NCBI GenBank assembly: GCA_003650925.1
Contig: QMSP01000003.1
Location: 19,446-83,445, forward strand
Length of the DNA stretch: 64,000 nucleotides
Source: Thermoprotei archaeon
GTDB taxonomy: Archaea; Thermoproteota; Thermoprotei; QMSL01
Direction of reading: 5' to 3'
Part shown: in pieces, positions 4,202 to 59,718 of the stretch
Position numbering within the stretch: position 1 is the first letter of the stretch
Layout of the letters: each line of letters begins with the position of its first letter
The notes under the pieces: generated by a model
Databases searched by the model: none
The model's input: the letters and a program-made list of their open reading frames with translations, nothing else
What the model was told of the DNA's origin: nothing
Position numbers and translations under genes: made by a program

Positions 4202-5526
4202 TCACTGAACTCCCTAACCTTATGCTTTTCCATAAGGGCTACTATATCTGACACTGCCTTACTGACGTCCTTATGGTCAAAGAAGCTTATTATAGCCTTG
4301 CAGAAGTCCTCAAGGAATGCTGGAGGAGCTAGCATGAAGGTGCCATGTGGTATTACAAGCTCTGGATGTTCCTTCAGGAATCTTATGTTCTCCCTTCTTA
4401 TGCTGTCTGGATACTCTGCAGGAGCATCGTCCCTAGCTGCTATGCTTCCCTTCTTGATAGCAAATTCGTAGGCTATCTGTGGCTCGCTTATGAGCTTTAG
4501 CCATAGCTTAGCCACATCTGGATGAGGACAGCCCTCAGGCATTACAAAGGCGTCTACGCCTATTAGGTACACCTCGTAGTCTCCTCCAGGAAGTGGAACT
4601 GCATGGAAGTCGACGTCACACTTTAGCCCTCTTGCTAAGAAGTAGCCTAGAGCCCAGTCTCCATACATACCCATGGCGGCCTTGCCCTCAGCTATAAGGG
4701 CACAGGTCTCATCCCATGTCCATGCATTGCTGGGAACTAGGTAGCCATTCTCTATCAGGACCTTTACAAATTCAAGAGCCTTTCTTAGAGGTTCAGCCTC
4801 CTCGGGCTTTGTTAGGTCAACTCTTCCAGTGAAGAAGTTGAGGTAGTACTCAGTTCTCTCATCCATGGTCTTTCCGCCATAGTAGTATATGAGTGGGTCG
4901 AAGAAGAAGGCTACATGCCAGTAGTCCTTAGTTGACATGACTATTGGATATACATTGGGCTTCTTCTCCTTTATTATTCTACAGACCTCCAGTAGCTCCT
5001 CAGGAGTAGTAGGAGGCTTTACTCCCAGCTCATCAAATATATGCTTGTTGTAGAAGAGAAGATTCTCTCTGTGTACATTATTGGCAGGAACTCCGTAGTA
5101 GTGGCCGTAGAAGTAGCACATTTTAGCTAATAGCTTGGGAACGTGTTCTATGAGATCAGTCTCCTCCCATACATCATCCACAGGTGCTAGGTAGCCAGCG
5201 TCAACATACCTTTTCAGGTTAGCTCCAGCCAGGTCTAGGAATATGTCAGGAGGATTACCTGCCTCAAGCCTGCTCATTACAACGACCCTTATATCTCTAG
5301 CAGCACCACCAGGTACTTCGTTCTCTCTTACAACTATGTCAGGATACCTCTCCTTGAAGTACTTGAAGTATACGTCTATGGCCTCTCGCTCACCACCAGC
5401 TGTGTAGTAGTGGTATATTATCAGTTCAGGCTTAGGAGCGAAATACTGTTGATAAGCATAGTACCCTCCTACTGCCAATACTATTATCGCTATGACGATA
5501 ACCCCAAGCAGCTTCTTGGAGAACAT
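4183..5526 (-). CDS. ABC transporter extracellular solute-binding protein (family 1, sugar-type) with an N-terminal membrane anchor.
   Basis: N-terminal TM/signal segment (LLGVIVIAIIVLAVGGYYAY), a 447-aa periplasmic-binding-protein-like sequence, and position first in the operon with two permeases. No ATPase is in the cluster, which is common in archaea. Confidence 0.65.
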   Translation of the reverse strand: MFSKKLLGVIVIAIIVLAVGGYYAYQQYFAPKPELIIYHYYTAGGEREAIDVYFKYFKERYPDIVVRENEVPGGAARDIRVVVMSRLEAGNPPDIFLDLAGANLKRYVDAGYLAPVDDVWEETDLIEHVPKLLAKMCYFYGHYYGVPANNVHRENLLFYNKHIFDELGVKPPTTPEELLEVCRIIKEKKPNVYPIVMSTKDYWHVAFFFDPLIYYYGGKTMDERTEYYLNFFTGRVDLTKPEEAEPLRKALEFVKVLIENGYLVPSNAWTWDETCALIAEGKAAMGMYGDWALGYFLARGLKCDVDFHAVPLPGGDYEVYLIGVDAFVMPEGCPHPDVAKLWLKLISEPQIAYEFAIKKGSIAARDDAPAEYPDSIRRENIRFLKEHPELVIPHGTFMLAPPAFLEDFCKAIISFFDHKDVSKAVSDIVALMEKHKVREFSEWFWKE

Positions 5527-48988: not shown

Positions 48989-49022
48989 GTCTCTGCCTCC
49001 TCTTAGGCTAACCTAACTAGTT

Positions 49023-49038
49023 TAGGCTAGCCTAAATT
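49023..49038. promoter_or_regulatory. 16-bp perfect palindrome TTTAGGCTAGCCTAAA, a candidate operator or terminator.
   Basis: Seen directly. It lies between the DUF134 gene 3' end and the FeoA-like gene 5' end on the minus strand. Confidence 0.3.
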
Positions 49039-49089
49039 TACAATAGGAGGTTTATAAGGATAATTATGTGCTATGGCTCAAAATCTTCC

Positions 49090-49467
49090 TCAGCGTGACG
49101 AAGGCCTACCTAGCGTTCGATAGTTCTGAGGAAGTACATAAGGACTCACTATAAGTGGACGAGGCGTATAGAGCATAAGAGCTATTTTCTTCCTAGCACT
49201 ATTAAGACAGCGCCAGAGAGTGCCTCTGCTTATCCCCATCCTTAAGGCTGCTTTATCTTGGGTAAGCCCTTCATGGTACACAAGACGAAAGGCCTCATAT
49301 TCATCCATGTAAAGTATGACAGGCTCTGGATCTCCCATCCTGTTGCCATTAGCATCAAAAGGTATGAACTGGATGAACCTGGGCTCTATGCTTATAAACC
49401 TGGGCTTGGAGGGTCTTCCAACTCTTCCCCAACGATGTCGCCATATCCAGCCATGCACAAGAACCAC
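49090..49467 (-). CDS. DUF134/UPF0251-family predicted DNA-binding protein.
   Basis: N-terminal GRPSKPRFISIEPRFIQFIP and a C-terminal sigma-70-region-4-like HTH (…LTQDKAALRMGISRGTLWRCL…). Confidence 0.55.
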   Translation of the reverse strand: MVLVHGWIWRHRWGRVGRPSKPRFISIEPRFIQFIPFDANGNRMGDPEPVILYMDEYEAFRLVYHEGLTQDKAALRMGISRGTLWRCLNSARKKIALMLYTPRPLIVSPYVLPQNYRTLGRPSSR

Positions 49468-49510: not shown

Positions 49511-49756
49511 TTATTCTCCACTAGACTTCTCAGCCCATGGAGGTCCTCCTCCACCTCTCCCTCTGCCTCTTCCCCAGCCTCTTCTTCCACGCCCCCTATC
49601 CACTCTATGTATCATATGGTGTGGAGCTCCGCATCTAGGACATTGAAGAGGTTTAGGCATGCCATAGGGCACCTCTATGATATTGCCACATGCCATGCAT
49701 TGAAAGCGTTTCATTGGAGGCTTTACCTCACTAGTCATTGAATACCCCCTCCACAA
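49511..49756 (-). CDS. Zinc-ribbon mini-protein with an RGG/RG-rich tail.
   Basis: CMACGN…CPRCG zinc ribbon followed by RGRGRRGWGRGRGRGGGGPPW. The true start is probably the internal Met (MKRFQC) at about 49714. Confidence 0.45.
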   Translation of the reverse strand: MWRGYSMTSEVKPPMKRFQCMACGNIIEVPYGMPKPLQCPRCGAPHHMIHRVDRGRGRRGWGRGRGRGGGGPPWAEKSSGE

Positions 49757-50630
49757 GCCTGGCTAAAGAGTTTATGACTCTATAGAAAGGTCTCTTCTCA
49801 TCCATGAGCTTGTTTAGATCTCCAGAGCTGTAAGCTGTGTGTACCACCTCATCATAGGGAACCATAGTCAAGGTGTACACGAAAGGTAACCCCTTAGCAA
49901 TTTCCCATACCTCCCTTATAAAGCTCTCCCAACCATCAAACTCTCCAACCTTATTGACTACGATAATACATTGCCTCTTAAACCTCTTATTTAGGTCTAG
50001 TACAAGTTTCAGATCATGAATTCCCATGGGAGTAGGCTCGGTGATTACAAGAACTATATTACTGATATTAAGAACCTCCGATATTATAGAACCTGCTCCC
50101 GGAGGACAGTCCACTAGAAGTATTTTGTTCTTGACATTATCTTTAACATAATCTATTAGAAGATGGGCTACTAAAGGACTTCTCTCATCTCCAGGAACTA
50201 TTTCGCCTCCTATAACAACAAGATCCTTAAGCTTGCCCCTCCATATATATCCCATGATTCGGTAGTCCTCCTTAACGGCATCATGGGGGCATACTATTTT
50301 GCATATGGTACATCCATTACATAATTCAGCTATGAGACTAGGCGGTCTTCCTGGAGGGGCTACAAGAGCATTCTCAGGACAATTCCTTACACATATACTG
50401 CATCCAGTACACTTCCTAGTATCTATTGAAGGAATAAAAGCTTTTAACTCCTTGACAATCTCCACTTGCTCCATGAAGACCTTAGACGAAGGATTATCAA
50501 CATCAGCATCGATATACACAACATCATGTTTCATCTTAGCCAAAAGATAGGCTATGCTAAGAGCTATAGTAGTCTTCCCTGTGCCTCCTTTGCCGCCTAG
50601 GACTCCTATAACCTGTACATTAGAGTGCAC
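49731..50630 (-). CDS. MinD/ParA-superfamily P-loop ATPase with an inserted 2x[4Fe-4S] ferredoxin domain (COG1149-like).
   Basis: Deviant Walker A GGKGGTGKTT. Two CxxCxxCxxxCP motifs (CTGCSICVRNCP, CNGCTICKIVCP). Confidence 0.7.
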   Translation of the reverse strand: MHSNVQVIGVLGGKGGTGKTTIALSIAYLLAKMKHDVVYIDADVDNPSSKVFMEQVEIVKELKAFIPSIDTRKCTGCSICVRNCPENALVAPPGRPPSLIAELCNGCTICKIVCPHDAVKEDYRIMGYIWRGKLKDLVVIGGEIVPGDERSPLVAHLLIDYVKDNVKNKILLVDCPPGAGSIISEVLNISNIVLVITEPTPMGIHDLKLVLDLNKRFKRQCIIVVNKVGEFDGWESFIREVWEIAKGLPFVYTLTMVPYDEVVHTAYSSGDLNKLMDEKRPFYRVINSLARLVEGVFND

Positions 50631-51495
50631 TTTCGATCACCTCCCTGAAGAGCTTGACTAGGGCTCTTGAAGCAGGACTCTCAGGGTATTTGACTATGAC
50701 TGGCTTGCCCATGACATAGGCTCTATAAACATGTTCATCATATGGTATCATGCCCTCCACTTTAATACCTCTCCTATGAAGTAGGTCAAGAATTCTCTTC
50801 ATGATTTCCTCCTTGTACTTATTCAAGATGACCAAATAGGGCACCTTGAAGTGTTCCAAGACCTTAATTACTCTTTCGCATCCCTGAAGTGATGCAAGAG
50901 AAGGCTCTAGCACTACTATGCCTAGGTCGGCTCCGGATATGGCAGCTATAGTAGGGCAGCCTATGCCAGGGGCTGAATCTATCACTATAACACCATCCTT
51001 CTTCGCAAGACCCTCAGCCATTTCCTTAGCCCTATAGACAAGCTTACCAGTATGCCTCATGCCAAGGGCTAAGTTTCCACTTATTAGAGGAAAACCATAA
51101 TCAGTCTCCATTATCCTAAGCTTACCTGGCTCTACATCCTTTAGGACTATAGCCTCTCTAGGACATACAAGACTACAAGCACCGCATCCTTCACATAGAT
51201 AATCTATAACCATGGGTTTACCTTCTATGAGCTCAATAGCTTTAAATTGACATGTAGCAATACACGCTAGGCAATCTATACACTTATCCCTATCTATGAA
51301 GGCTCTTTTAGCCCCCCTTTCAACATATTCCCTAACAACCCTCCCTCCTAAGACAAGATGAAGATTAGGAGCCTCAAGATCAGCATCAAGAGCTATAACA
51401 TTAAAACCATTCTCATGTAAATAAATAGAAAAATTTGAAGATATTAGAGTCTTTCCAACCCCTCCTTTGCCGCTTACCACCACTATTTGCTTCAA
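50620..51495 (-). CDS. MinD/ParA-superfamily P-loop ATPase with an inserted ferredoxin domain (paralog of the downstream gene).
   Basis: GKGGVGKT Walker A. Ferredoxin motifs CIDCLACIATCQ and CEGCGACSLVCP. An 11-bp overlap with the paralog. Confidence 0.7.
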   Translation of the reverse strand: MKQIVVVSGKGGVGKTLISSNFSIYLHENGFNVIALDADLEAPNLHLVLGGRVVREYVERGAKRAFIDRDKCIDCLACIATCQFKAIELIEGKPMVIDYLCEGCGACSLVCPREAIVLKDVEPGKLRIMETDYGFPLISGNLALGMRHTGKLVYRAKEMAEGLAKKDGVIVIDSAPGIGCPTIAAISGADLGIVVLEPSLASLQGCERVIKVLEHFKVPYLVILNKYKEEIMKRILDLLHRRGIKVEGMIPYDEHVYRAYVMGKPVIVKYPESPASRALVKLFREVIESAL

Positions 51496-51496
51496 G

Positions 51497-51844
51497 CTAT
51501 GCCTTCACCCCTAGCTTTCTCAAAGCCTCCCTAACCGTAATCTCTGGCTCTACATAGACTACTTCAATGCCTAGGCTTCTAAGAGCTGCTTCAGCTCTAG
51601 GTCCTAGTCTTGTTACCACGACCTTGCTAACTCCTTTATTAGCCAAGGTCTGTGCTGCAAGAGGGCCTGCACCATGTCCTACGCTAACGGCTGGATTCTC
51701 TATGGCCTCAACTTTAACTATTCTTGAACCTTCTAACTCCACTATGGTGAATGTCTTACATCTTCCAAAGCTTTGTGCTACGAGGTCATCAAGTCCTCCT
51801 TGACTAGCAGATGTTATAGCTATCTTCTCTCTTCCCATGGTCAT
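51497..51844 (-). CDS. NifX/NifB-C-terminal-like (dinitrogenase FeMo-cofactor biosynthesis) domain protein.
   Basis: About 115 aa with …KIAITSASQGGLDDLVAQSFGRCKTFTIVE…GHGAGPLAAQTL… typical of the COG1433 fold. Confidence 0.6.
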   Translation of the reverse strand: MTMGREKIAITSASQGGLDDLVAQSFGRCKTFTIVELEGSRIVKVEAIENPAVSVGHGAGPLAAQTLANKGVSKVVVTRLGPRAEAALRSLGIEVVYVEPEITVREALRKLGVKA

Positions 51845-51865: not shown

Positions 51866-52192
51866 TTAAGGTGGCGCCCTACTTTTCCTCCTTTCCTCAA
51901 TAATGCGCCTCAGCTCCTTTATTGCCTCTTCAACACTTCTAAGCTCCTCTTCTAGCTCTCTCTTATACTGCTCAAGCATGGAAAGTTCTTCCTCAGGGCT
52001 TGGTGGTGGAGGTGGTGGCATGTAGTACATTGGTGGTGGATAGTAAGCCGCATAGGCAGGATATGCTTGTTGAGATGGTTGTTGAGTCTGCTGGGCTTGT
52101 GGAGCACTTGAGGGAGCCGATACTGGAGGTGGCGGAGGAGGAGGCATGTAGTACATTAGTCTTCTCCACCACCAGTACCACATACTTTTCAC
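51866..52192 (-). CDS. Pro/Tyr/Trp-rich low-complexity protein with a C-terminal coiled coil.
   Basis: MKSMWYWWWRRLMYYMPPPPPPP…MYYMPPPPPPSPEEELSMLEQYKRELEEELRSVEEAIKELRRIIEERRK. The 12-nt direct repeat CATGTAGTACAT (52019-52030 and 52145-52156) encodes the repeated MYYM. Confidence 0.4.
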   Translation of the reverse strand: MKSMWYWWWRRLMYYMPPPPPPPVSAPSSAPQAQQTQQPSQQAYPAYAAYYPPPMYYMPPPPPPSPEEELSMLEQYKRELEEELRSVEEAIKELRRIIEERRKSRAPP

Positions 52193-52200
52193 CTTTTCAC

Positions 52201-52398
52201 CTAGGCTGGTGGCTTGAAAGCAGTTTCAAAAGCCTTTCTCCAAGCCTCTATAGCTGTTCTGAAGACATCAATGAAGAGCCACCAGTAGTACGTTGCCATG
52301 AGCAGACTGAATAGGTCATACATTAGTGGATATGGCATCAGGTACCAGTATGGTGAATATGGCAGAGGAGGAACATAATAATAGATGTATGGATTCAT
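52201..52398 (-). CDS. Tyr/Pro-rich mini-protein with a hydrophobic C-terminal half.
   Basis: MNPYIYYYVPPLPYSPYWYLMPYPLMYDLFSLLMATYYWWLFIDVF…. It is in the same frame as the upstream Trp-rich ORF, separated only by TGA plus 3 codons. Confidence 0.3.
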   Translation of the reverse strand: MNPYIYYYVPPLPYSPYWYLMPYPLMYDLFSLLMATYYWWLFIDVFRTAIEAWRKAFETAFKPPA

Positions 52399-52407
52399 GT
52401 TATCACC

Positions 52408-52677
52408 TCACCATGGCCTTATTGGGTACCATGGCATTATGTACCATGGATATGACCATGTTCCCCATGGCCACCAGTAGTACATTGGGTAGTATCCATA
52501 GTAGCCTAGCCATGGATACATCCATGGACCAAAGAGCCACCAGCAAGCTCCTCTTCCGAACAACCACCCTGGTCTAAGCCATGGTGGAAGCCAGCTAAAT
52601 GGTCCTCTTCCTGGCCATGGGCTGATCCATCCCCATCCTCTCCCGCCTCTCCATCCCCATCCCATTCCGATCACCAC
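52408..52677 (-). CDS. Extremely Trp/Gly/Pro-rich mini-protein.
   Basis: …GWGWRGGRGWGWISPWPGRGPFSWLPPWLRPGW…PWMYPWLGYYGYYPMYYWWPWGTWSYPWYIMPWYPIRPW. The coding DNA is a CCATGG cluster, so either strand could in principle be the real one. The minus strand is chosen for operon context. Confidence 0.3.
   Translation of the reverse strand: MVIGMGWGWRGGRGWGWISPWPGRGPFSWLPPWLRPGWLFGRGACWWLFGPWMYPWLGYYGYYPMYYWWPWGTWSYPWYIMPWYPIRPW
52411..52620. repeat. Cluster of eight CCATGG hexamers in 210 bp.
   Basis: CCATGG counted at 52411, 52429, 52444, 52465, 52510, 52522, 52579 and 52615, often as TACCATGG or GCCATGG. This is far above random expectation for a 6-mer. Confidence 0.5.
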
Positions 52678-52772
52678 TTATGTGCTATAGCACATAAGTC
52701 TTAAATCTACCTATATATAAATTTATCTCATATCAAAAAGGACGAGTAAAATAAGAGTTGTTTGCAGGAGGG

Positions 52773-55700
52773 CTAGGAGTGCAGTGCTTTCTCCGCTCTT
52801 TCTATGTACTTAGCCTGCTCTTTTGATGGGAGAGATCTCCACAGTAATAGCTGCTTCCTTATGCTATCGATGAAGTAGTAGTTTGATGAAACCCATATTG
52901 ACCTAGCGCCAGAGATCCTCCTTAGGTGTAGACTGAAGGCGTAGCGCTTCTCTTCGGGCAGTAGGCTTGCTGAGATCGCCACCTCCTGATTCACCTGCAT
53001 CTCATAGGGAGCCAAGCCTACTATTAGCAGTAGAGCATTCTTATCATACTGTATGCCCTTCAGCTCCCTGACCATGAAGGTCCTGGTCTCTCTGCCCTCT
53101 CCCTCAAAGTACTCCCTTAGGTATTCAATTACTCCTAGGGCCTCTTTTCTCGAGGGAACTCTTAGTGGTAGAGGTATGTCCCACTCATCCCCTCTTGGCT
53201 TAGTTGGTGGCTTCCATCTTCTCTCAAGTGAGGGAGTGACCATCTTAGCGGCTATTGAAGCTGGATAGGCTGCTGAGGTTAAGGTTGCAAGTATGATACA
53301 GGCTATGGCTACTAGTACGAAGAGGGAGGAGTAGTTGAGGACGAAGTATCCAGGAAGTAGGCCTGTGCTTATGAAGACTAGGTTTGTATAGAAGCCTATG
53401 ATGTAGCCGACGAGTGCTCCTAGGATAGCGTAGACCAGGGTTTCTGATACGAACATCGAGGCCACTCCTATGGGCGAAAGCCCTAGGCTGCTATAGGTGA
53501 AGATCTCCCTAACCCTTTCTTTGACTGCACCAAGCATGGTTACAACTATGTTAGCAATGCCTATAGCTAGGATTACGCTCACTAGGTTCCAGCCTAGGAG
53601 AAGGAATACGGTGATCCTGGACAGCTTATGAACAACCCCTTCCCATCCCATGAACACCTCAACGTCGAGGCACATGGCAGCATCCCATGCCATTTTATGA
53701 AGAACCTCCTTTGCAAGGTCTCTGTTGGCCTCTATGACTTCAGGCTTTAGTCTTATGGCTACATTAGCTACATATCCTCCCAGGTCCAGCGCTAATCTCC
53801 ATGGTACTATAAGGACTGAGCTCCAAGAGAGCGTCGTAGGTGCAGGGACCTGTGGGGGAGCGACAAACCTACATAGAGGCTGTACAGTTATGGGATCAAC
53901 AGGTGTTATGGCTCTATTGTCAAGGTCAACTACACTGCCAAGTATAGAGCCATCAAAGATACCCATGACCTTGAGCTTTATACCTGCCCACTCTATGACA
54001 TCTCCTATGGTTACATTTAGCTTCTCAGCTACATATTTCTCGAGTATGCATGCATAGTAGTCATCCTCTCTGAATCCCTCACCTATTAGCACGTCCTTGA
54101 ATATTATCTTGACCTCCTCCGCACGCATTCCAAGAAGAGCTCTTACAGCATAGATATTCTCACCATGTCTAAGTATGGCCTTAGGGCCTTCTGATGGCAG
54201 CTCAGTCTCTGGATAGTACCAAACTCTTGGGCATACTATAGCGTAGTCTCCAGCTAAACCTTCAGCGTACTCTATCAAGTGATGGTCAAATATATCATAG
54301 GGCACACAGTATTGCCTCTTCAAGAAGACTCCTGCGTATACAGCCTCCTCGGGAGGAGCTGCAGCCTTGGGAACAGCAACTCTCTTGACCGTAGTGTAGT
54401 AGGAGGCTGATGTTATCGAAGTGAGGCCTATAGCTATGGCTATGATAGTAGCTAATACAAGGGTTGTTCTAAGCTTCCTCTTCCTCATGTTCTCAACTGC
54501 TACCGAGAAGGCTAACATCATTATGCCTACAGTGCCTGTCTCAGGCTTGTGCAGGCCCTTGAGCTTTAGAGCTACCTCCTTCATTATCCTATTGACCTCA
54601 TCGAACAGTATGGCCAGTGTTATTATGAAGAAGACCTCTAGTAGGATACCCATGAAGCCCATGAAAGCATTGCTTATGATGCTTAGCCCTGGGTGCATGT
54701 TGTAGAATATGAATACAAGCACTATGGAGAGTGCTATGGTGACAAGCAGTCTTCTACGTCCTTCACTATGGAACAATAGACGCTCGAAGAAGAAGACAAA
54801 GGGTATCATGAGAGCGAAGAATGCTATTGTGGTGTTGGCTGTATCATTGATCAGGCTCATGACTTCCTCATAAGCTCTCACTGACCATGTCCATGCTAGA
54901 TAGGCCTCTCTATAGGCCTTGTCATATTCCATATTTCTATAGTATTCCTCAGCTAGTTCAAGGTGCCTCTTGGCCTCCTTGAGCACTTCCTCAGCGCTAA
55001 GGCTTCTGACAAGCTTTGAAGCTAGTGTATTATACCTATGTCTTGCTACGGTATACATGTCGTACGCATATCGATAGGCAGTGAAGGGTATGCTATAGGA
55101 CCTTATCTTATAGCCCAGCTCTATTCCACTTCCCTCGGGATATTCATCACTAGCGTTTACTACGAAGGCCACAGTTCTAGGCAGGCCAGGGCCTGCACTC
55201 ATAACAACGAAGGACCTAGTTCTTGGAAGGAGGAACACCATAGCTACTTCTTCATTTTGACTATACATGGTTCCATACCATATGTATATGCTTCGACTCT
55301 CGAAGTCATATGGAGTTATGATGAAGGACTCCAGTAGGAACTCCTCAGCATTCAGTCTAGGGTCTGGGATGTATATTCGTCTCATCAGCTTAGGGTCTAT
55401 GACGTCGTAGAGCGTTATGGTACATGCAGGCATTACTACAGTAGCAGCTTCAGCTGTCCCTCCTAGAAGCCATAGCTTGAAGTTCACAAACTTTATACCA
55501 TACTGACCATAGTCAGGAGCGTATATTATCTCTCCTGTATTCTCATCAACAACCCATGCATCTACATACCAGCCAATTCCTCTAGGAACTTCGGCAGGCA
55601 GGACAGGTGCCCAACCAGCATCTATGGAAGGTGTTGGACATAGGCCATGCACTATGAAGTCTCCATTCTCATCAGCATAGACGATGATCTGAGAGAATGG

Positions 55701-57437
55701 ATATGTTGATGCAAGCCATACTCTAACAAGAGCTCTTGGGATCTTGGAGAACCAGCCTTTGCTTATGTTGTATGTCCAGACAATACCTTTAAGAGTAACG
55801 AAGCCAGCACTCCACACCTGATAGCTGCCCACTTGGAACCACTGGAATCTCCTTGGCTTTATCAAGCTCCAGTCCAGCCCTAGCTTGGGTTCATATATCA
55901 CACAACACAGCACTGGCAGAGCCTGTATAACTAGCTTCTTTAGATTTTCCATGTTCACATAGGCACGGTCATCAAGAGGAGTATTCCAGTGCACTCTATA
56001 GGCATGTGCTGTCCTAAGGGTTATTGAAGGTAGTCCTGCCACAGCCAGAGGCTCGCTATCTATCATGTAGGGTGATGGGCTTCTTCCCCACCAGCCATAT
56101 TGAGTTATGAAGTCCTTGGTGCCCATTATTATGCTCACGCCGTACAAGGACTTGGCAACTTGCTCAACTGCATAGATCCATCTGCTATAGAGCCTCCTCA
56201 GTGGCTCCCATCTAGTGACCACGTATTGGCCTTCCCAATGTATAGCGTAACGATAGAAACAGCCTGCATGGAGTATGTCAAGTTCGTCAGAGTCCGTTGA
56301 GAAGTCCAGGTTGATCTGAGTCCAGACCTTATAGTTCTCCTTTTGTATCAAGTCATCGAATAGCACATATTCAACGAATTCCCTAGGACCAGCCAAGGCT
56401 TCCCAATGCCCTGAGAAGGCTACAAACATAAGGCTTCTTGGCGGTGGATTCTCAGAGAAGTATCGAGCAAGCTCAAGGAGAACAGCTATACTGGTTGCTT
56501 CATCAACTCCTCTCGAGAACGCTAGAACAGGGCTCCAGCTATCATAGTGAGCACTTATAATTATTATTTCATCAGGTGTCTCAGTGCCCTTGATCAGGCC
56601 TATGACATTGTAGGCTTCAACCTCTCTATAGAAGACTCTGGAAACTACTCTGACCTCAACCTTACCATGCTCCTTAAGCAGCTTGAGAAGCTGAGCTCCT
56701 ACGTCTGAGGTTACATATACTCGAGGAGTATATAGCGGAGTTATCAGGATCTTAGCCAGAGAGTCGAGCCTTGTAGCGTGTGGAGTCTCCATGAATATAA
56801 CTGCTTTGGCTCCAAGCTTGAAGGCATTAAGCCACTTTCTTCCACAATCATACCTAAGCATCACTATAGCTCCTTCAATACGTTTGCCATTGAAATCCTC
56901 TAGGTCTCCATCATCAGCGTAAACCAATGTTCCTCTAAGCCCTTCTGGTGGTGTTGGAGAAGTCTGTATTGAATTAGGCCACATTGAATAGGCCTTTAAC
57001 CTCATTCTCACAGGGCTTATTACTTCTATGTAACACTCCTCTTCGACAGGAGCTACCACCTTATACTTCTGGAAGTACCCATCTAGTCTCTCAAGCAGTC
57101 TCTCGGATTTGAAGCCGAATTCCTTAGGCGTTATTAATCCATATTCCTCAAACTTCTCAGCGATGTATTCGGCAACCTCCCTAAGGCCAGGCTGACCTGG
57201 TATTCTACTGCCAGCCTTCTCTATTACGGAGAGGTGCTCAGCCACTCTATCATAGTCTATACTCTTCACGACCTTCTCATATATTGACCTTATCTCCTCC
57301 TCGGGTACTTGACCATAGTTCCCCCTGATGCTAACCGATGTCACCAAGGATGTCATTGCAATAGATGAAATGAGCATTATAGCCAATAGTAGGATGAGCA
57401 TACGGTCTTTGACTCTAAGACTCTTAACGTCAAGCAT
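52773..57437 (-). CDS. Giant (1554 aa) membrane fusion protein: signal/TM, M28-peptidase-like plus PA ectodomain, polytopic middle region, and a C-terminal MacB/FtsX-type permease module.
   Basis: N-terminal TM (LILLLAIMLISSIAM). M28-like HxD and Asp motifs (IISAHYDSW, GVDEATSIAVLLEL, FSGHWE). A MacB-like N-terminal helix …VENMRKRKLRTTLVLATIIAIAIGLTS…, a large extracytoplasmic segment and a C-terminal FtsX three-TM bundle (…LLLGWNLVSVILAIGIANIVVTMLGAVKERVREIFTYSSLGLSPIGVASMFVSETLVYAILGALVGYIIG…). No ABC ATPase lies nearby. Confidence 0.65.
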   Translation of the reverse strand: MLDVKSLRVKDRMLILLLAIMLISSIAMTSLVTSVSIRGNYGQVPEEEIRSIYEKVVKSIDYDRVAEHLSVIEKAGSRIPGQPGLREVAEYIAEKFEEYGLITPKEFGFKSERLLERLDGYFQKYKVVAPVEEECYIEVISPVRMRLKAYSMWPNSIQTSPTPPEGLRGTLVYADDGDLEDFNGKRIEGAIVMLRYDCGRKWLNAFKLGAKAVIFMETPHATRLDSLAKILITPLYTPRVYVTSDVGAQLLKLLKEHGKVEVRVVSRVFYREVEAYNVIGLIKGTETPDEIIIISAHYDSWSPVLAFSRGVDEATSIAVLLELARYFSENPPPRSLMFVAFSGHWEALAGPREFVEYVLFDDLIQKENYKVWTQINLDFSTDSDELDILHAGCFYRYAIHWEGQYVVTRWEPLRRLYSRWIYAVEQVAKSLYGVSIIMGTKDFITQYGWWGRSPSPYMIDSEPLAVAGLPSITLRTAHAYRVHWNTPLDDRAYVNMENLKKLVIQALPVLCCVIYEPKLGLDWSLIKPRRFQWFQVGSYQVWSAGFVTLKGIVWTYNISKGWFSKIPRALVRVWLASTYPFSQIIVYADENGDFIVHGLCPTPSIDAGWAPVLPAEVPRGIGWYVDAWVVDENTGEIIYAPDYGQYGIKFVNFKLWLLGGTAEAATVVMPACTITLYDVIDPKLMRRIYIPDPRLNAEEFLLESFIITPYDFESRSIYIWYGTMYSQNEEVAMVFLLPRTRSFVVMSAGPGLPRTVAFVVNASDEYPEGSGIELGYKIRSYSIPFTAYRYAYDMYTVARHRYNTLASKLVRSLSAEEVLKEAKRHLELAEEYYRNMEYDKAYREAYLAWTWSVRAYEEVMSLINDTANTTIAFFALMIPFVFFFERLLFHSEGRRRLLVTIALSIVLVFIFYNMHPGLSIISNAFMGFMGILLEVFFIITLAILFDEVNRIMKEVALKLKGLHKPETGTVGIMMLAFSVAVENMRKRKLRTTLVLATIIAIAIGLTSITSASYYTTVKRVAVPKAAAPPEEAVYAGVFLKRQYCVPYDIFDHHLIEYAEGLAGDYAIVCPRVWYYPETELPSEGPKAILRHGENIYAVRALLGMRAEEVKIIFKDVLIGEGFREDDYYACILEKYVAEKLNVTIGDVIEWAGIKLKVMGIFDGSILGSVVDLDNRAITPVDPITVQPLCRFVAPPQVPAPTTLSWSSVLIVPWRLALDLGGYVANVAIRLKPEVIEANRDLAKEVLHKMAWDAAMCLDVEVFMGWEGVVHKLSRITVFLLLGWNLVSVILAIGIANIVVTMLGAVKERVREIFTYSSLGLSPIGVASMFVSETLVYAILGALVGYIIGFYTNLVFISTGLLPGYFVLNYSSLFVLVAIACIILATLTSAAYPASIAAKMVTPSLERRWKPPTKPRGDEWDIPLPLRVPSRKEALGVIEYLREYFEGEGRETRTFMVRELKGIQYDKNALLLIVGLAPYEMQVNQEVAISASLLPEEKRYAFSLHLRRISGARSIWVSSNYYFIDSIRKQLLLWRSLPSKEQAKYIERAEKALHS

Positions 57438-57493
57438 CCTAAGAACCTCCTAGGATAATAAAAGATTAAAAGAATTTAAAAAGGTTGTTTTGT

Positions 57494-59563
57494 CTAGACT
57501 AGCCTAGCCCAGAACATTGGCCAAGCTCTTAGGCAGAACTGTAACACTGCTGTTATGAAGAAGTTGAATCCATAGCCCATTGCGAAGCCTATAGCAGCAG
57601 GTACAGCTCTCTCCTCATATAGCTTGGCGCCGCCTACTCTGAACACTATCACCTTGATTATTAGAGCTATTAGGCAGTTTAGCCACATCCACTCCATGAC
57701 GAACAGTGTCATCATCATGGCTACTGGGTTCCAGAAGAACCATGGGAACCTCATTCTCAGTAGGTATACTATTATGACAAACACTATACCAGTCCACGTT
57801 AGGTGTATGTACTCAGGTATGGTGAACTCAGGTGTTGTGAGTGTGTAGTTCTGAGCCCAGCCTAGAGCCCATTCGTGATAAGGCACTGGGCCTAGCTTGC
57901 TTAGACCTCCAAGGTGATGTATCCACCATAGGCCAAATACATGAGTCCATATTCCAGCTACGATGGCAGTTATTATCATTGCCCAAAATACATCAGCAGC
58001 TCTCACCTTGTTGACCTCAGCAACCTTGTACATGTAGATGGTGGTCCTTATGTTGAAGGGTGATAGCCTTGGGCCTGCGTTTCCTAGAGCGCATACTAGG
58101 AATATCGACTTTATCATGGTTGGATCAGTTGTTGGTATGGCTGGAGCTCCTAGCATTGCATAGACATATGGTGTGCCAAATAGCTGGTATACTGTGTAGT
58201 GCCTCCATAGCTCTGCTGAACCTCTTATGTTGGCTATCTGGAATAGCCAGTATGTTAGCAGGACGAATATAGCAACGTGCACAGGGACTCCAGAGCCTAC
58301 CCACATTGCTAGCCAGAGTAGGCAGAGTATTATAGTACCCCATGCTACAAGCCTATACGATACGCCCTGCTCCTTGATGTCCTCCTTGCCAAAGGCACAC
58401 TTGAAGATGGTTGCGAGGTGCTTGTAGGTGGTTATCAGAACCCATACGCCTATTCCCAGAGTTATACCGCTTGTAGCCCAGTACCAGTACTTGAAGGGAC
58501 CGTTTCTTCCATAGTAGCCAGCCATGATGCCCATGTACATACTCTCTACGCCAGGCCTGTACTCCAGTATGCCTAGCTTGACTCCTACGACTGGGTATAG
58601 GAAGGCGAATATGAACCAGGTCAGCACAGTAGTGGCGAGTATATCAAGTGGACATAGGAAGAATATTGGTATCTCTGGTATCATCAGATAAGCAAATGCG
58701 AAGCCTCCTGGGAATAGAGTAGTTGTGTATGGTGATAGGTCTACAGGCTGTGTGCTCCACTCAGTGCTTGGTGGAATGGCTGGTATGAAGTATCTGAATA
58801 CGTCTGGCAGGGTTCCTAGGAAGCCTAATATGAAGAACACCCAGAACAGCTTATTCCTTGGTATCCTAAGGTCAAACAGCTTCGTCCTGTTCTTCTCAGG
58901 GTCTATTTCACTAGCCCACTGAATTAGATAAGCAGTTGGTAGTACAGCTGGGAATGGAAGCCTCTCAACTTCAATGAAGGGCTTTCTAAGCATGAAGCCC
59001 CAGAAGTAGCCAGTTATGGTCCATAGTAGGAAGAACAGTATCCAGTAGACCAAGGATGGACCCCAAGCTCCCCATGGAACTTCGCCTATGCCTACGTTCT
59101 CCCTAGCCCAGGCCAAGCCGTACCAAGCAGCATCTACGATGTTCTTGTCCTTAGGTATCCAGAACTCGGGAATTATATCCCACCAAGCCTTATAGGGATC
59201 GTTCTCGGCAGCGTATAATGGCATGAAGAAGTGATAAGTGGGAACACAAGATATGCCCCATAGTAGCTGACCATACTGGATGTAAGTGACACCAGCGCAC
59301 ATTAAGCATGTTGTAGTTAGTACGGTTAGCTCAGCTGCGGTAAGCCTCCACTTGGGATTCACCCATCCTAAGAGCTCAGATACTATGATCACTAGGATTA
59401 TTGGCGGTGGTAATACTCCTGGGAAAGCCCACCATTCAGTTAGCGTCTGGATCCAGAAGTTGCCAACGAACGATGCCAATATTACTACTATCATCCAGAA
59501 GAGCACTCTGGGAGTCAATCCTCTCTGTAGCTCCTCCTTAGGAGCCTCGCTCATAAATATCAC
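57494..59563 (-). CDS. Polytopic membrane protein (689 aa), a paralog of the divergent gene and possibly OPT-superfamily-like.
   Basis: At least 14 hydrophobic segments. It shares the FIEVERLPFPAV motif with 59719..61650 (FIEVEKLPFPFA) and an N-terminal LT-x-R. It sits 57 bp upstream of the giant gene on the same strand. Confidence 0.55.
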   Translation of the reverse strand: MIFMSEAPKEELQRGLTPRVLFWMIVVILASFVGNFWIQTLTEWWAFPGVLPPPIILVIIVSELLGWVNPKWRLTAAELTVLTTTCLMCAGVTYIQYGQLLWGISCVPTYHFFMPLYAAENDPYKAWWDIIPEFWIPKDKNIVDAAWYGLAWARENVGIGEVPWGAWGPSLVYWILFFLLWTITGYFWGFMLRKPFIEVERLPFPAVLPTAYLIQWASEIDPEKNRTKLFDLRIPRNKLFWVFFILGFLGTLPDVFRYFIPAIPPSTEWSTQPVDLSPYTTTLFPGGFAFAYLMIPEIPIFFLCPLDILATTVLTWFIFAFLYPVVGVKLGILEYRPGVESMYMGIMAGYYGRNGPFKYWYWATSGITLGIGVWVLITTYKHLATIFKCAFGKEDIKEQGVSYRLVAWGTIILCLLWLAMWVGSGVPVHVAIFVLLTYWLFQIANIRGSAELWRHYTVYQLFGTPYVYAMLGAPAIPTTDPTMIKSIFLVCALGNAGPRLSPFNIRTTIYMYKVAEVNKVRAADVFWAMIITAIVAGIWTHVFGLWWIHHLGGLSKLGPVPYHEWALGWAQNYTLTTPEFTIPEYIHLTWTGIVFVIIVYLLRMRFPWFFWNPVAMMMTLFVMEWMWLNCLIALIIKVIVFRVGGAKLYEERAVPAAIGFAMGYGFNFFITAVLQFCLRAWPMFWARLV

Positions 59564-59718
59564 CAGATATGGTCGTTAAAAATTTATATTTGAACTCTAA
59601 ATTTAAGCACTCTCCTTACTACTGTTTTTAAGTTTAAACGAGTTTAGAGTTTCGATGTTTAAGTTCTAAAGGCTAAAAAGTCCTTTCCAGCAATAATTTC
59701 GTATCGGTGTGATAGGAC
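59564..59718. promoter_or_regulatory. AT-rich divergent promoter region between the paralogous membrane-protein genes, with an inverted repeat AACTCTAAA/TTTAGAGTT.
   Basis: GAACTCTAAATTT…GAGTTTAGAGTTTCG and a GTTTAAAC palindrome were seen directly. Confidence 0.3.

Follow-up and report, generated by a model that had tools for sequence, protein, structure and literature searches.

Three small, adjacent genes in a Thermoprotei archaeon encode proteins of extreme composition, and we think it somewhat probable, though far from certain, that they open an iron-sulfur (Fe-S) operon in the issA regulon and that their products act on anionic Fe-S species. The genes, open reading frames (ORFs) 1 to 3, lie on the minus strand of positions 51,866-52,677 in a 64,000-nt (64-kb) stretch of contig QMSP01000003.1 (assembly GCA_003650925.1), which we call the window. 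ORF1, ORF2 and ORF3 are three separate protein-coding genes that are conserved across archaeal phyla. The main rivals to this explanation of their function are that the small proteins are adaptors of an Fe-S protein complex, or that they bind nucleic acids.

Three small proteins of unusual composition

The three minus-strand ORFs of odd composition that a first-pass annotation had pointed out are all present as described, and they are real coding sequences. ORF1 (52,408-52,665, minus strand) encodes 85 aa and ends with a TGA stop codon. It was given as 52,408-52,677 in the ORF list, and the ATG at 52,665 is the more likely start, with the Shine-Dalgarno (SD) motif GGTGAT at 52,670-52,675 and the N-terminus MGWGW. 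An identical protein with the same MGWGW beginning is in NCBI as DRN15_02040, from a metagenome-assembled genome of a Thermoprotei archaeon. ORF1 is polycationic and rich in Trp, Gly, Pro, Tyr and Arg, with GW/GR repeats, a core (WPGRGPFSWLPPWLRPGWLFGRGACWW) and an aromatic tail. Its 19 Trp among 85 residues (22%) agree with the earlier estimate of about 20%, and the remainder includes 14 Pro, 15 Gly, 10 Tyr, 6 Arg and a single Cys, Cys41, with no Lys, Asp or Glu and a net charge of +6. The protein is strongly hydrophobic and offers trypsin few cleavage sites. AlphaFold2 (AF2; 120 sequences) predicted that ORF1 is disordered (pLDDT 48.7). The 5' coding region of ORF1 contains G-runs (GGGATGGGGATGGAGAGGCGGGAGAGGATGGGGATGG, 52,627-52,663, minus strand) because Gly and Trp codons alternate, and a G-quadruplex is possible in the mRNA or the coding strand.

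ORF2 (52,201-52,398, minus strand; identical to NCBI DRN15_02035) encodes 65 aa with a Tyr/Pro-rich disordered N-terminus and one long helix that carries a conserved W-R-K...E motif. The AF2 model (pLDDT 71) placed the helix at residues 26-60 and left the N-terminus disordered. We considered whether ORF2 is a clear transmembrane protein in the window genome and rejected this, as its uncharged stretch, about 15 residues with Asp on the flank, is too short. ORF3 (51,866-52,183, minus strand) encodes 105 aa from its likely start, the ATG at 52,183 (51,866-52,192 in the ORF list). It opens with MWYWWWRR and has a W/R-rich N-terminus followed by poly-Pro, a Gln-rich linker, a second poly-Pro stretch and a coiled coil (SPEEELSMLEQYKRELEEELRSVEEAIKELRR). 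The WYWWW, the two MYYMPPPPPP repeats and the C-terminal coiled coil noted earlier are all there; the repeats are a 33-nt direct repeat (88% identical) and the C-terminal helix is heptad-rich. No Pfam or NCBIfam family was found for ORF1 or ORF2, and GenBank annotates the small genes as hypothetical proteins, with ORF1 and ORF2 as separate entries.

Conservation and relation to DUF5320

ORF1 is conserved widely among archaea. There were 128 homologues at E ≤ 0.01, relatives in 302 species-level genomes, and 80 of the 80 fetched loci were archaeal. The taxa include Thermoproteota, Bathyarchaeia, Nitrososphaeria, Hadesarchaea, Korarchaeota and Methanomethylicota, as well as Thermococci, Thermoplasmata, Methanocellales, Brockarchaeota and Hodarchaeaceae. 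Among cultured species, Thermococcus aggregans carries a homologue, NF865_09520. The core (WPGRGPFSYLPPWQRPGWLFGRGACWW) is almost invariant, with 20 invariant columns in an alignment of 28 sequences and, among 120 sequences, 13 invariant and 14 nearly invariant columns; the tail is variable yet Trp/Tyr/Pro-rich. The 65 short-form homologues contained on average 18% Trp, 13% Tyr, 16% Pro, 17% Gly, 8% Arg and 0.3% Asp plus Glu; their net charge averaged +6.6, and exactly one Cys was present in 60 of them.

ORF2 represents an unnamed family of partner proteins of about 65 residues that always comes right after ORF1. We uncovered this family by examining the DNA downstream of ORF1 homologues and then searching with the resulting alignment. 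ORF2 homologues, often uncalled as genes, were directly 3' of ORF1 homologues at 28 loci and share the pattern D-P-F...W-R-K...E. A single-sequence search of a word-indexed database found only ORF2 itself, and phmmer against 1.84 billion representatives gave only 2 matches. The alignment search found 17 called proteins in a large database, and none of the 17 had a Pfam domain. In the ENA contig that is identical to the window (locus L001, 5627-6000), the metagenome gene caller omitted ORF1 and began ORF3 nine codons late, and ORF2 homologues are uncalled in several related contigs (e.g., L002). Genes of these types have gone uncalled, and therefore the ORF1-ORF3 families are under-represented in protein databases.

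The window encodes a split DUF5320, divided between ORF1 and ORF3. Sequence comparison identifies ORF1 as the conserved N-terminal core of an archaeal DUF5320 branch, without the coiled coil, and ORF3 as the coiled-coil (C-terminal) half, because coiled-coil homologues of ORF1 match PF17253 (DUF5320) and ORF3 matches the coiled-coil end of that profile. Among 120 ORF1 homologues, 35 matched PF17253 at E ≤ 0.001, and these are proteins of 95-117 aa with a coiled coil in place of the aromatic tail. ORF1 itself gave no match to PF17253 at E ≤ 1 and aligns with the PF17253-positive proteins over the core WPGRGPFS.LPPW.RPGW.FGRG.CWW. ORF3 matched profile positions 62-99 only (E 1e-4, 23.8 bits), below the gathering score of 27 bits; four fused relatives (P0002, P0010, P0041 and P0073) scored 27.4-32.3 bits. 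ORF3-type genes are near ORF1 homologues in most loci, and their products have a start rich in W and R, linkers rich in Pro and Gln, and the motif (S/T)PEEEL.MLE.YK..LEEEL..VE.RI.EL. The two halves, a G/R-rich Cys-containing N-terminal part and the coiled coil, are separate genes in the window, with ORF2 between them, and are joined in one protein in about 14-17 related loci.

At several loci from Bathyarchaeia and relatives (L007, L020, L026, L037, L049 and L055), paralogous coiled-coil genes follow the ORF1 homologue in a row. Their N-termini differ and are aromatic or Gly-rich (MGYRWRRMYYLTGLPGW..., LPYGMGPWGW...GRCRWFPWLPRWWW...), and a fusion of NifX-like and coiled-coil parts is also present.

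Operon punctuation and codon usage within ORF1

The in-frame TGA between ORF1 and ORF2 is an ordinary stop codon that overlaps with the ribosome-binding site of ORF2 (TGAGGTGATAACATG), that is, normal operon punctuation. The two ORFs do share a reading frame, as had been reported, and are separated by the TGA (52,408-52,410) and three codons. On this basis it was suggested that they might be one gene, either expressed by readthrough, selenocysteine insertion or other recoding, or recently broken by pseudogenization. The junction reads CCA TGG TGA GGTGAT AAC ATG, i.e., stop, SD and start, with the SD of ORF2 (52,402-52,407) directly after the TGA. Across 28 non-redundant related loci, ORF1 and ORF2 homologues never form one gene: ORF1 ends with TAG in 12, TGA in 10 and TAA in 6, the relative frames of the two genes are distributed 10/10/8, and the gaps of 1-22 nt have an SD motif inside. 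The comparison with orthologues that had been proposed as a check thus gave no fusion and a stop codon and frame that vary. No fused ORF1-ORF2 protein was found among the matches of the homologue searches. For a recoding signal (like a selenocysteine insertion sequence), there was no Rfam match in the window at gathering thresholds, and no dedicated search was made. The arrangement resembles programmed UGA readthrough or selenocysteine recoding in having an in-frame TGA, in this one genome only, and differs in that frame and stop vary in relatives and that an SD and ATG follow the stop. We consider it extremely unlikely that ORF1 and ORF2 are a single gene.

Related junctions have features of their own. 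Many ORF1 homologues end with Trp-Trp-stop (TGG TGG TGA/TAG; e.g., L004 at 5240-5275, L050, L051 and L078). In these, GGTGGTGA is also the SD of the next gene, 1-8 nt before its start, and thus one set of bases serves both as C-terminal Trp codons and as ribosome-binding site. In the Bathyarchaeia-type group, only 1-4 codons usually separate ORF1 from a following gene in the same frame, and two Nitrososphaeria/Thaumarchaeota loci (L019 and L046) have a second in-frame stop.

The cluster of CCATGG palindromes in ORF1 arises because of the ORF1 protein sequence and a strong preference for the Pro codon CCA. There are eight sites in 210 bp (52,411-52,620), as the first-pass annotation stated, and this is far beyond chance: the window has 36 sites compared to about 12 expected from base composition, or about 0.04 expected per 210 bp. 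Such a density of palindromic hexamers could indicate a repeat or restriction-site element at the DNA level, with the ORFs incidental, and coding potential on both strands had been raised. We give that reading virtually no weight. All eight sites are in frame 0 of ORF1 (minus strand), each as a CCA-TGG (Pro-Trp) codon pair. CCA accounts for 14 of 14 Pro codons in ORF1, 7 of 9 in ORF2 and 13 of 23 in ORF3, compared to 28% in 45 long ORFs of the window. In Pro-Trp pairs of ORF1 homologues, CCA was used in 53% and other Pro codons in 47% (CCA elsewhere, 37%), and therefore the hexamer is not conserved as DNA; the conservation is on the protein. The repeats in the region are short and codon-driven only, with no long DNA repeats, just 17 of 84 ORF1 homologues have an open antisense frame, and Rfam and tRNA scans of the window gave no matches. 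The excess of CCA could reflect a codon-pair preference or adaptation to high expression. A caution for sequence scans is that operon punctuation and codon pairs can create in-frame stops and palindrome clusters in tiny ORFs.

A palindromic site shared with issA

A perfect 24-nt palindrome, ACTTATGTGCTATAGCACATAAGT (52,676-52,699), lies between a TATA box and the SD of ORF1 and is a predicted operator. The TATA-box-like sequence, read off the DNA as TTTATATATA (52,712-52,721, minus strand), is about 29 nt upstream of the palindrome centre, and the predicted operator probably overlaps the transcription start. The core, TGTGCTATAGCACA (52,681-52,694), has this one exact match in the 64 kb. The order TATA box, palindrome, SD was found in most related loci, and TGTGC-N4-GCACA was present within 200 nt upstream of the ORF1 homologue in 37 of 79 loci. 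There were 48 copies in about 568 kb (the related loci and a 16-kb slice of the window), nearly all in promoters of cluster genes, including those of ORF1-type, ORF3-type, DUF134, NifX-like and MinD-like genes. Without the window, there were 47 copies in 552 kb, compared to about 0.5 expected by chance. The consensus is TTnTGTGC-WWWW-GCACAnAA, positioned just after or just before the TATA box, and certain promoters carry two sites. The arms show invariant bases and no co-variation, a pattern more in line with DNA recognized by a protein than with an RNA hairpin. A scan for sigma-70 promoters was set aside as uninformative for an archaeon.

The same site precedes issA, which encodes the Fe-S storage protein IssA. 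We identified IssA-type genes at nine metagenomic Thermococcales loci (L086-L094) by means of the N-terminus encoded by a published issA cloning primer. All nine have the site (TGTGCATATGCACA), in a single copy per locus, 32-44 nt before the start and between TATA box and SD. Based on these patterns, we conclude that the operon has a promoter of its own and that one recurrent site marks promoters of the cluster genes across archaeal phyla and issA in Thermococcales. The palindrome would then be an operator that places the operon in the issA regulon. In P. furiosus, no gene is induced more strongly by elemental sulfur than issA, which responds to sulfide only if enough iron is present, and NifX-like and MinD-FeS genes are among the top elemental-sulfur-induced genes, co-induced, in Palaeococcus. 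Directly 3' of issA in the nine loci is an ORF of about 75-85 aa that starts with MPRGFGRGYGR and continues with a long hydrophobic stretch resembling two transmembrane helices, followed by a second NifX-like gene with a GMGRGRG tail.

The regulator that acts at the palindrome is probably the DUF134 protein, which would bind the site. It is the best candidate because it has a helix-turn-helix, is often divergent with the site between, and is near two of the larger issA loci. At several loci, the palindrome is in the intergenic region between divergent DUF134 and ORF1- or ORF3-type genes. We searched the literature on DUF5320, DUF134, UPF0251 and the operator sequence and found nothing functional.

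The palindromic site may also extend to feoA. A second operator-like site (TGTGCTATGGCTCA, 49,067-49,080) with one mismatch and the conserved TTA/AAA flanks is just upstream of the feoA TATA box; the other two one-mismatch matches in the window are inside long ORFs. Two DtxR/IdeR-like iron boxes (TTAGGCTAACCTAA at 49,003-49,016 and TTAGGCTAGCCTAA at 49,022-49,035) follow the feoA TATA box and precede the start of the gene, and therefore feoA appears to carry both an iron-repressor site and a near-copy of TGTGC-N4-GCACA.

A predicted operon with Fe-S proteins

Clusters of NifX-like, MinD-FeS, DUF134 and DUF5320 genes are widespread in anaerobes. In the window, ORF1, ORF2 and ORF3 are followed on the minus strand, after 21 nt, by a gene (51,497-51,844) for a tail-less NifX/IssA/Orp8-type protein with a Nitro_FeMo-Co domain (PF02579, E 7e-20), for which MTH1175 (1EO1) and the orange protein ORP (2WFB; E 1.3e-11) are the nearest relatives of known structure. 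One nt further on is the first of two genes that, by their Pfam domains, encode MinD/ParA-type ATPases with an inserted 2x[4Fe-4S] ferredoxin domain, similar to Orp3/Orp4 (copy 1, 50,620-51,495; copy 2, 49,731-50,630; 11-nt overlap). Copy 2 in turn overlaps a gene for an MJ0401-type zinc-ribbon protein (49,511-49,738) with the C-terminal tail RGRGRRGWGRGRGRGGGG. The MJ0401-type gene is probably the last of the operon because a terminator-like hairpin and a T-run come after it; then come the gene for the DUF134 helix-turn-helix protein (49,090-49,458, minus strand; PF02001, NF003257) and feoA. With this spacing, ORF1-ORF3 would be the first cistrons of an operon that runs through the MJ0401-type gene. 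The MJ0401 tail is RG/GW-rich and the DUF134 protein has a W/R-rich N-terminus (HGWIWRHRWGRVGRP), such that RG/GW low-complexity stretches occur in three or four proteins of one gene cluster.

Much of this neighbourhood recurs. We counted genes within 4 kb of ORF1 homologues at 81 related loci: a NifX-like gene was present in 51, a MinD gene with the CxxCxxCxxxC ferredoxin motif in 34, DUF134 in 45, and at least one of these in 64. At 13 loci, a single ORF joins a NifX-like domain, a G/R/M/W-rich linker and a DUF5320 coiled coil (matches to the ORF3 hidden Markov model [HMM]), in either order. The coiled-coil half is first in 6 of the 13, and the N-termini (MFWWRRY...SPEEELRMLEDYKRELE) align with ORF3. 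In four Thermococci loci (L034, L035, L052 and L077), the palindrome is upstream of a NifX-like gene whose long tail, rich in Pro and Gln, ends Cys-rich (CIHYKNGKCEFW...DPACPFF...APWRWW), with one or two ORF1-type genes directly after it.

The gene upstream of ORF1 on the same strand (52,773-57,437) encodes a 1554-aa fusion of M28 peptidase, PA domain and FtsX permease, and the earlier suggestion was that the small proteins are secreted or surface peptides that serve as its substrates or partners. Adjacency on the same strand is consistent with this, and we nevertheless judge it very improbable. A relative of the M28-FtsX gene was near an ORF1 homologue in 1 of 81 related loci, and the conserved neighbours are cytoplasmic Fe-S proteins. 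T-runs, the TATA box and the palindrome lie between the M28-FtsX gene and ORF1, and therefore the small genes have a promoter of their own. None of ORF1-ORF3 has a signal-peptide-like N-terminus, as judged by reading the sequences with no predictor run. A gene for a DUF6785 membrane protein precedes the M28-FtsX gene (the pair spans 52,773-59,575), and the pair is not conserved next to ORF1 homologues.

Proposed function and alternatives

The best model for the function of ORF1 comes from IssA (SipA, PF2025, Q8TZG9), the iron-sulfur storage protein of Pyrococcus furiosus, in which a NifX-like domain is joined to a cationic, disordered tail rich in W, G and R (Vaccaro et al. 2017, PMC5524996). 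The tail has a Pro-rich stretch and then an unstructured cationic Trp/Gly/Arg-rich region with the only Cys of the protein, and it was proposed to wrap anionic thioferrate; other clade members, e.g., MTH1175, are tail-less (Vaccaro et al. 2017, PMC5524996). Six IssA-type tails (84-102 aa) contained 11-18 P, 15-24 G, 6-9 W, 5-11 Y, 8-13 R, no K, 0-1 D+E and one Cys. A disordered cationic Gly/Arg/aromatic tail with few Cys, the hallmark of IssA (Vaccaro et al. 2017), was thus found in ORF1; the IPR003731/Nitro_FeMo-Co domain that accompanies it in the same protein is absent from ORF1-ORF3 and is encoded at 51,497-51,844.

We propose that ORF1 would be a free-standing equivalent of the disordered, cationic, single-Cys tail of IssA, supplied in trans to the tail-less NifX-like protein. 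This proposal was made because IssA tails and ORF1 share a restricted alphabet with one Cys each, and the MJ0401 and DUF134 proteins have similar stretches. ORF1, together with the coiled-coil protein ORF3 and the helix protein ORF2, might assemble on or around an anionic inorganic Fe-S species, either a thioferrate-like polymer or a cluster, that the NifX-like protein would hold and the two MinD-type Fe-S ATPases would service. ORF3 would multimerize the assembly and ORF2 would be a helical partner. By analogy, the function of ORF1 would be to bind the anionic Fe-S species; such thioferrate or Fe-S binding, and induction by sulfide at sufficient iron, may be suggested, indirectly, by the shared promoter site and the published regulation of issA. 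A tentative generalization, which we consider possible and clearly less probable than the proposal for the window, is that pan-archaeal free-standing disordered mini-proteins are the trans "tail" of tail-less NifX/IssA-type proteins and nucleate, cap or size an Fe-S polymer or particle, with a TGTGC-N4-GCACA switch read by DUF134 in response to iron plus sulfide. The mini-protein module in this generalization combines a polycation (about 20% Trp, one invariant Cys) with a helix rich in Tyr and a coiled coil rich in Pro.

Several points weigh against this proposal. Co-transcription with the NifX-like and MinD-type genes was deduced from gene spacing alone (gaps of 21 nt and 1 nt, and overlaps), about one-fifth of the related loci have none of these Fe-S neighbours in 4 kb, and DUF134 is a candidate regulator by guilt by association. 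A fusion of the ORF1 core with a NifX-like domain was not found among the related loci, and we dropped the idea of such a fusion. Trp is about twice as frequent in ORF1 as in the IssA tails, and the ORF1 core is rich in Pro, in contrast to the (GWGRG)n of IssA. The link between ORF1 and IssA is by analogy and shared regulation, not homology; homology was rejected as an explanation of the likeness, since an HMM of the ORF1 family gave negative bit scores against IssA-type proteins with all filters off. Searches of the available literature found no expression, binding or metal data for these proteins. Finally, the conservation of the ORF1 core goes beyond what non-specific electrostatic interaction needs, and this suggests that ORF1 has a specific partner, which could be a protein or else a defined cluster.

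That conservation would suit a defined protein interface, and one rival explanation is that ORF1-ORF3 are protein-binding subunits or assembly adaptors of an ORP-type complex of MinD-FeS and NifX-like proteins that they would tether, oligomerize or localize, with no contact to an Fe-S polymer. The ORF3 coiled coil, the long helix of ORF2, the neighbourhood and fusion links and the stability of the ORP complex are all in keeping with such a role. It leaves unexplained the IssA-tail-like composition of ORF1, its zero acidic residues and its single invariant Cys, and we hold it to be unlikely on its own, with an appreciable chance all the same; it is not exclusive of the explanation by trans tails. 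RG/GW-rich stretches in ORF1, MJ0401 and DUF134, as well as the polycationic, predicted disordered nature of ORF1, are also what might be expected of RGG/GW-type proteins that bind nucleic acids (e.g., G-quadruplex [G4] or RNA) or form condensates, in which case the Fe-S link would be regulatory only. A published survey flagged Methanosarcina DUF5320 and DUF134 proteins for a G4-binding-like RG motif. However, that flag comes from computational motif matching alone, the fusion partners are NifX-like metal-cluster domains and not nucleic-acid-binding domains, and the W/G/R tail of IssA, which was studied experimentally, was associated with thioferrate. We consider nucleic-acid binding rather doubtful.

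It is less probable still, and indeed quite improbable, that the small proteins are membrane-interface or single-pass membrane mini-proteins, or precursors of ribosomally synthesized and post-translationally modified peptides, in which a conserved leader would precede a variable aromatic core. High Trp and Tyr would favor membrane interfaces, ORF2 homologues contain a run of some 20 uncharged residues with basic residues behind it, and the N-terminal part of ORF1 is conserved with a variable tail. However, the corresponding stretch in the window ORF2 is about 15 residues and Asp-flanked, no modification enzymes, proteases or exporters are conserved nearby, and a coiled coil replaces the variable tail in the fused relatives.

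Significance and comparison with known systems

The three genes do not constitute a novel type of element, and a DUF already covers some of the ORF1 family. As far as the literature we searched shows, four findings are new: modules that occur both split and fused, the family of ORF2, the fusions with NifX, and the predicted operator that these genes share with issA. DUF5320 is modular, with a Trp-rich cationic core and a coiled coil that are fused, split, or found with the coiled coil fused to NifX domains, and ORF2 is a new partner family of about 65 residues that travels with the split form. To our knowledge, IssA-type iron-sulfur storage is known from a single organism. A palindromic site that ties the cluster genes to issA across archaeal phyla predicts a shared iron- and sulfide-responsive regulon with a candidate regulator. 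These findings bring the function of the ORP/IssA-type cluster within reach of experiment, and the genetics of Thermococcus or Pyrococcus would serve for each of them.

The genes in the window can be compared to three known systems. They resemble DUF5320 (PF17253, a family of about 100 aa) in the core and coiled coil of the ORF1 relatives, in the coiled-coil match of ORF3, and in the genomic company of NifX-like, MinD-FeS and DUF134 genes; they differ in being two genes with ORF2 between them, neither above the Pfam threshold, and in the Trp/Tyr/Pro tail of ORF1. The likeness to the Desulfovibrio ORP complex is in domain make-up, in that the NifX-like protein and the two MinD-ferredoxin ATPases of the window correspond to Orp8, Orp3 and Orp4. 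Two paralogous 2x[4Fe-4S] MinD-like ATPases together with a single-domain Di-Nase protein, the combination typical of ORP systems, are found in the operon as a whole and not in the three ORFs. According to the passages available from the published description, Orp3, Orp4 and Orp8 co-purify in D. vulgaris and ORP proteins form a stable complex (PMC6345978), and those passages do not mention small proteins of the DUF5320 type. The window differs from that system in being archaeal, without sigma-54 regulation and without an MrpORP fusion. ORF1 resembles IssA in being tail-sized (85 aa), in its restricted P/G/W/Y/F/R alphabet with one Cys and an aromatic C-terminus, in having the same promoter palindrome in the same position, and in being encoded three genes upstream of a tail-less, IssA-clade-like NifX protein. 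It differs from the IssA tail in being a separate polypeptide with a conserved Pro-rich core in place of (GWGRG)n.

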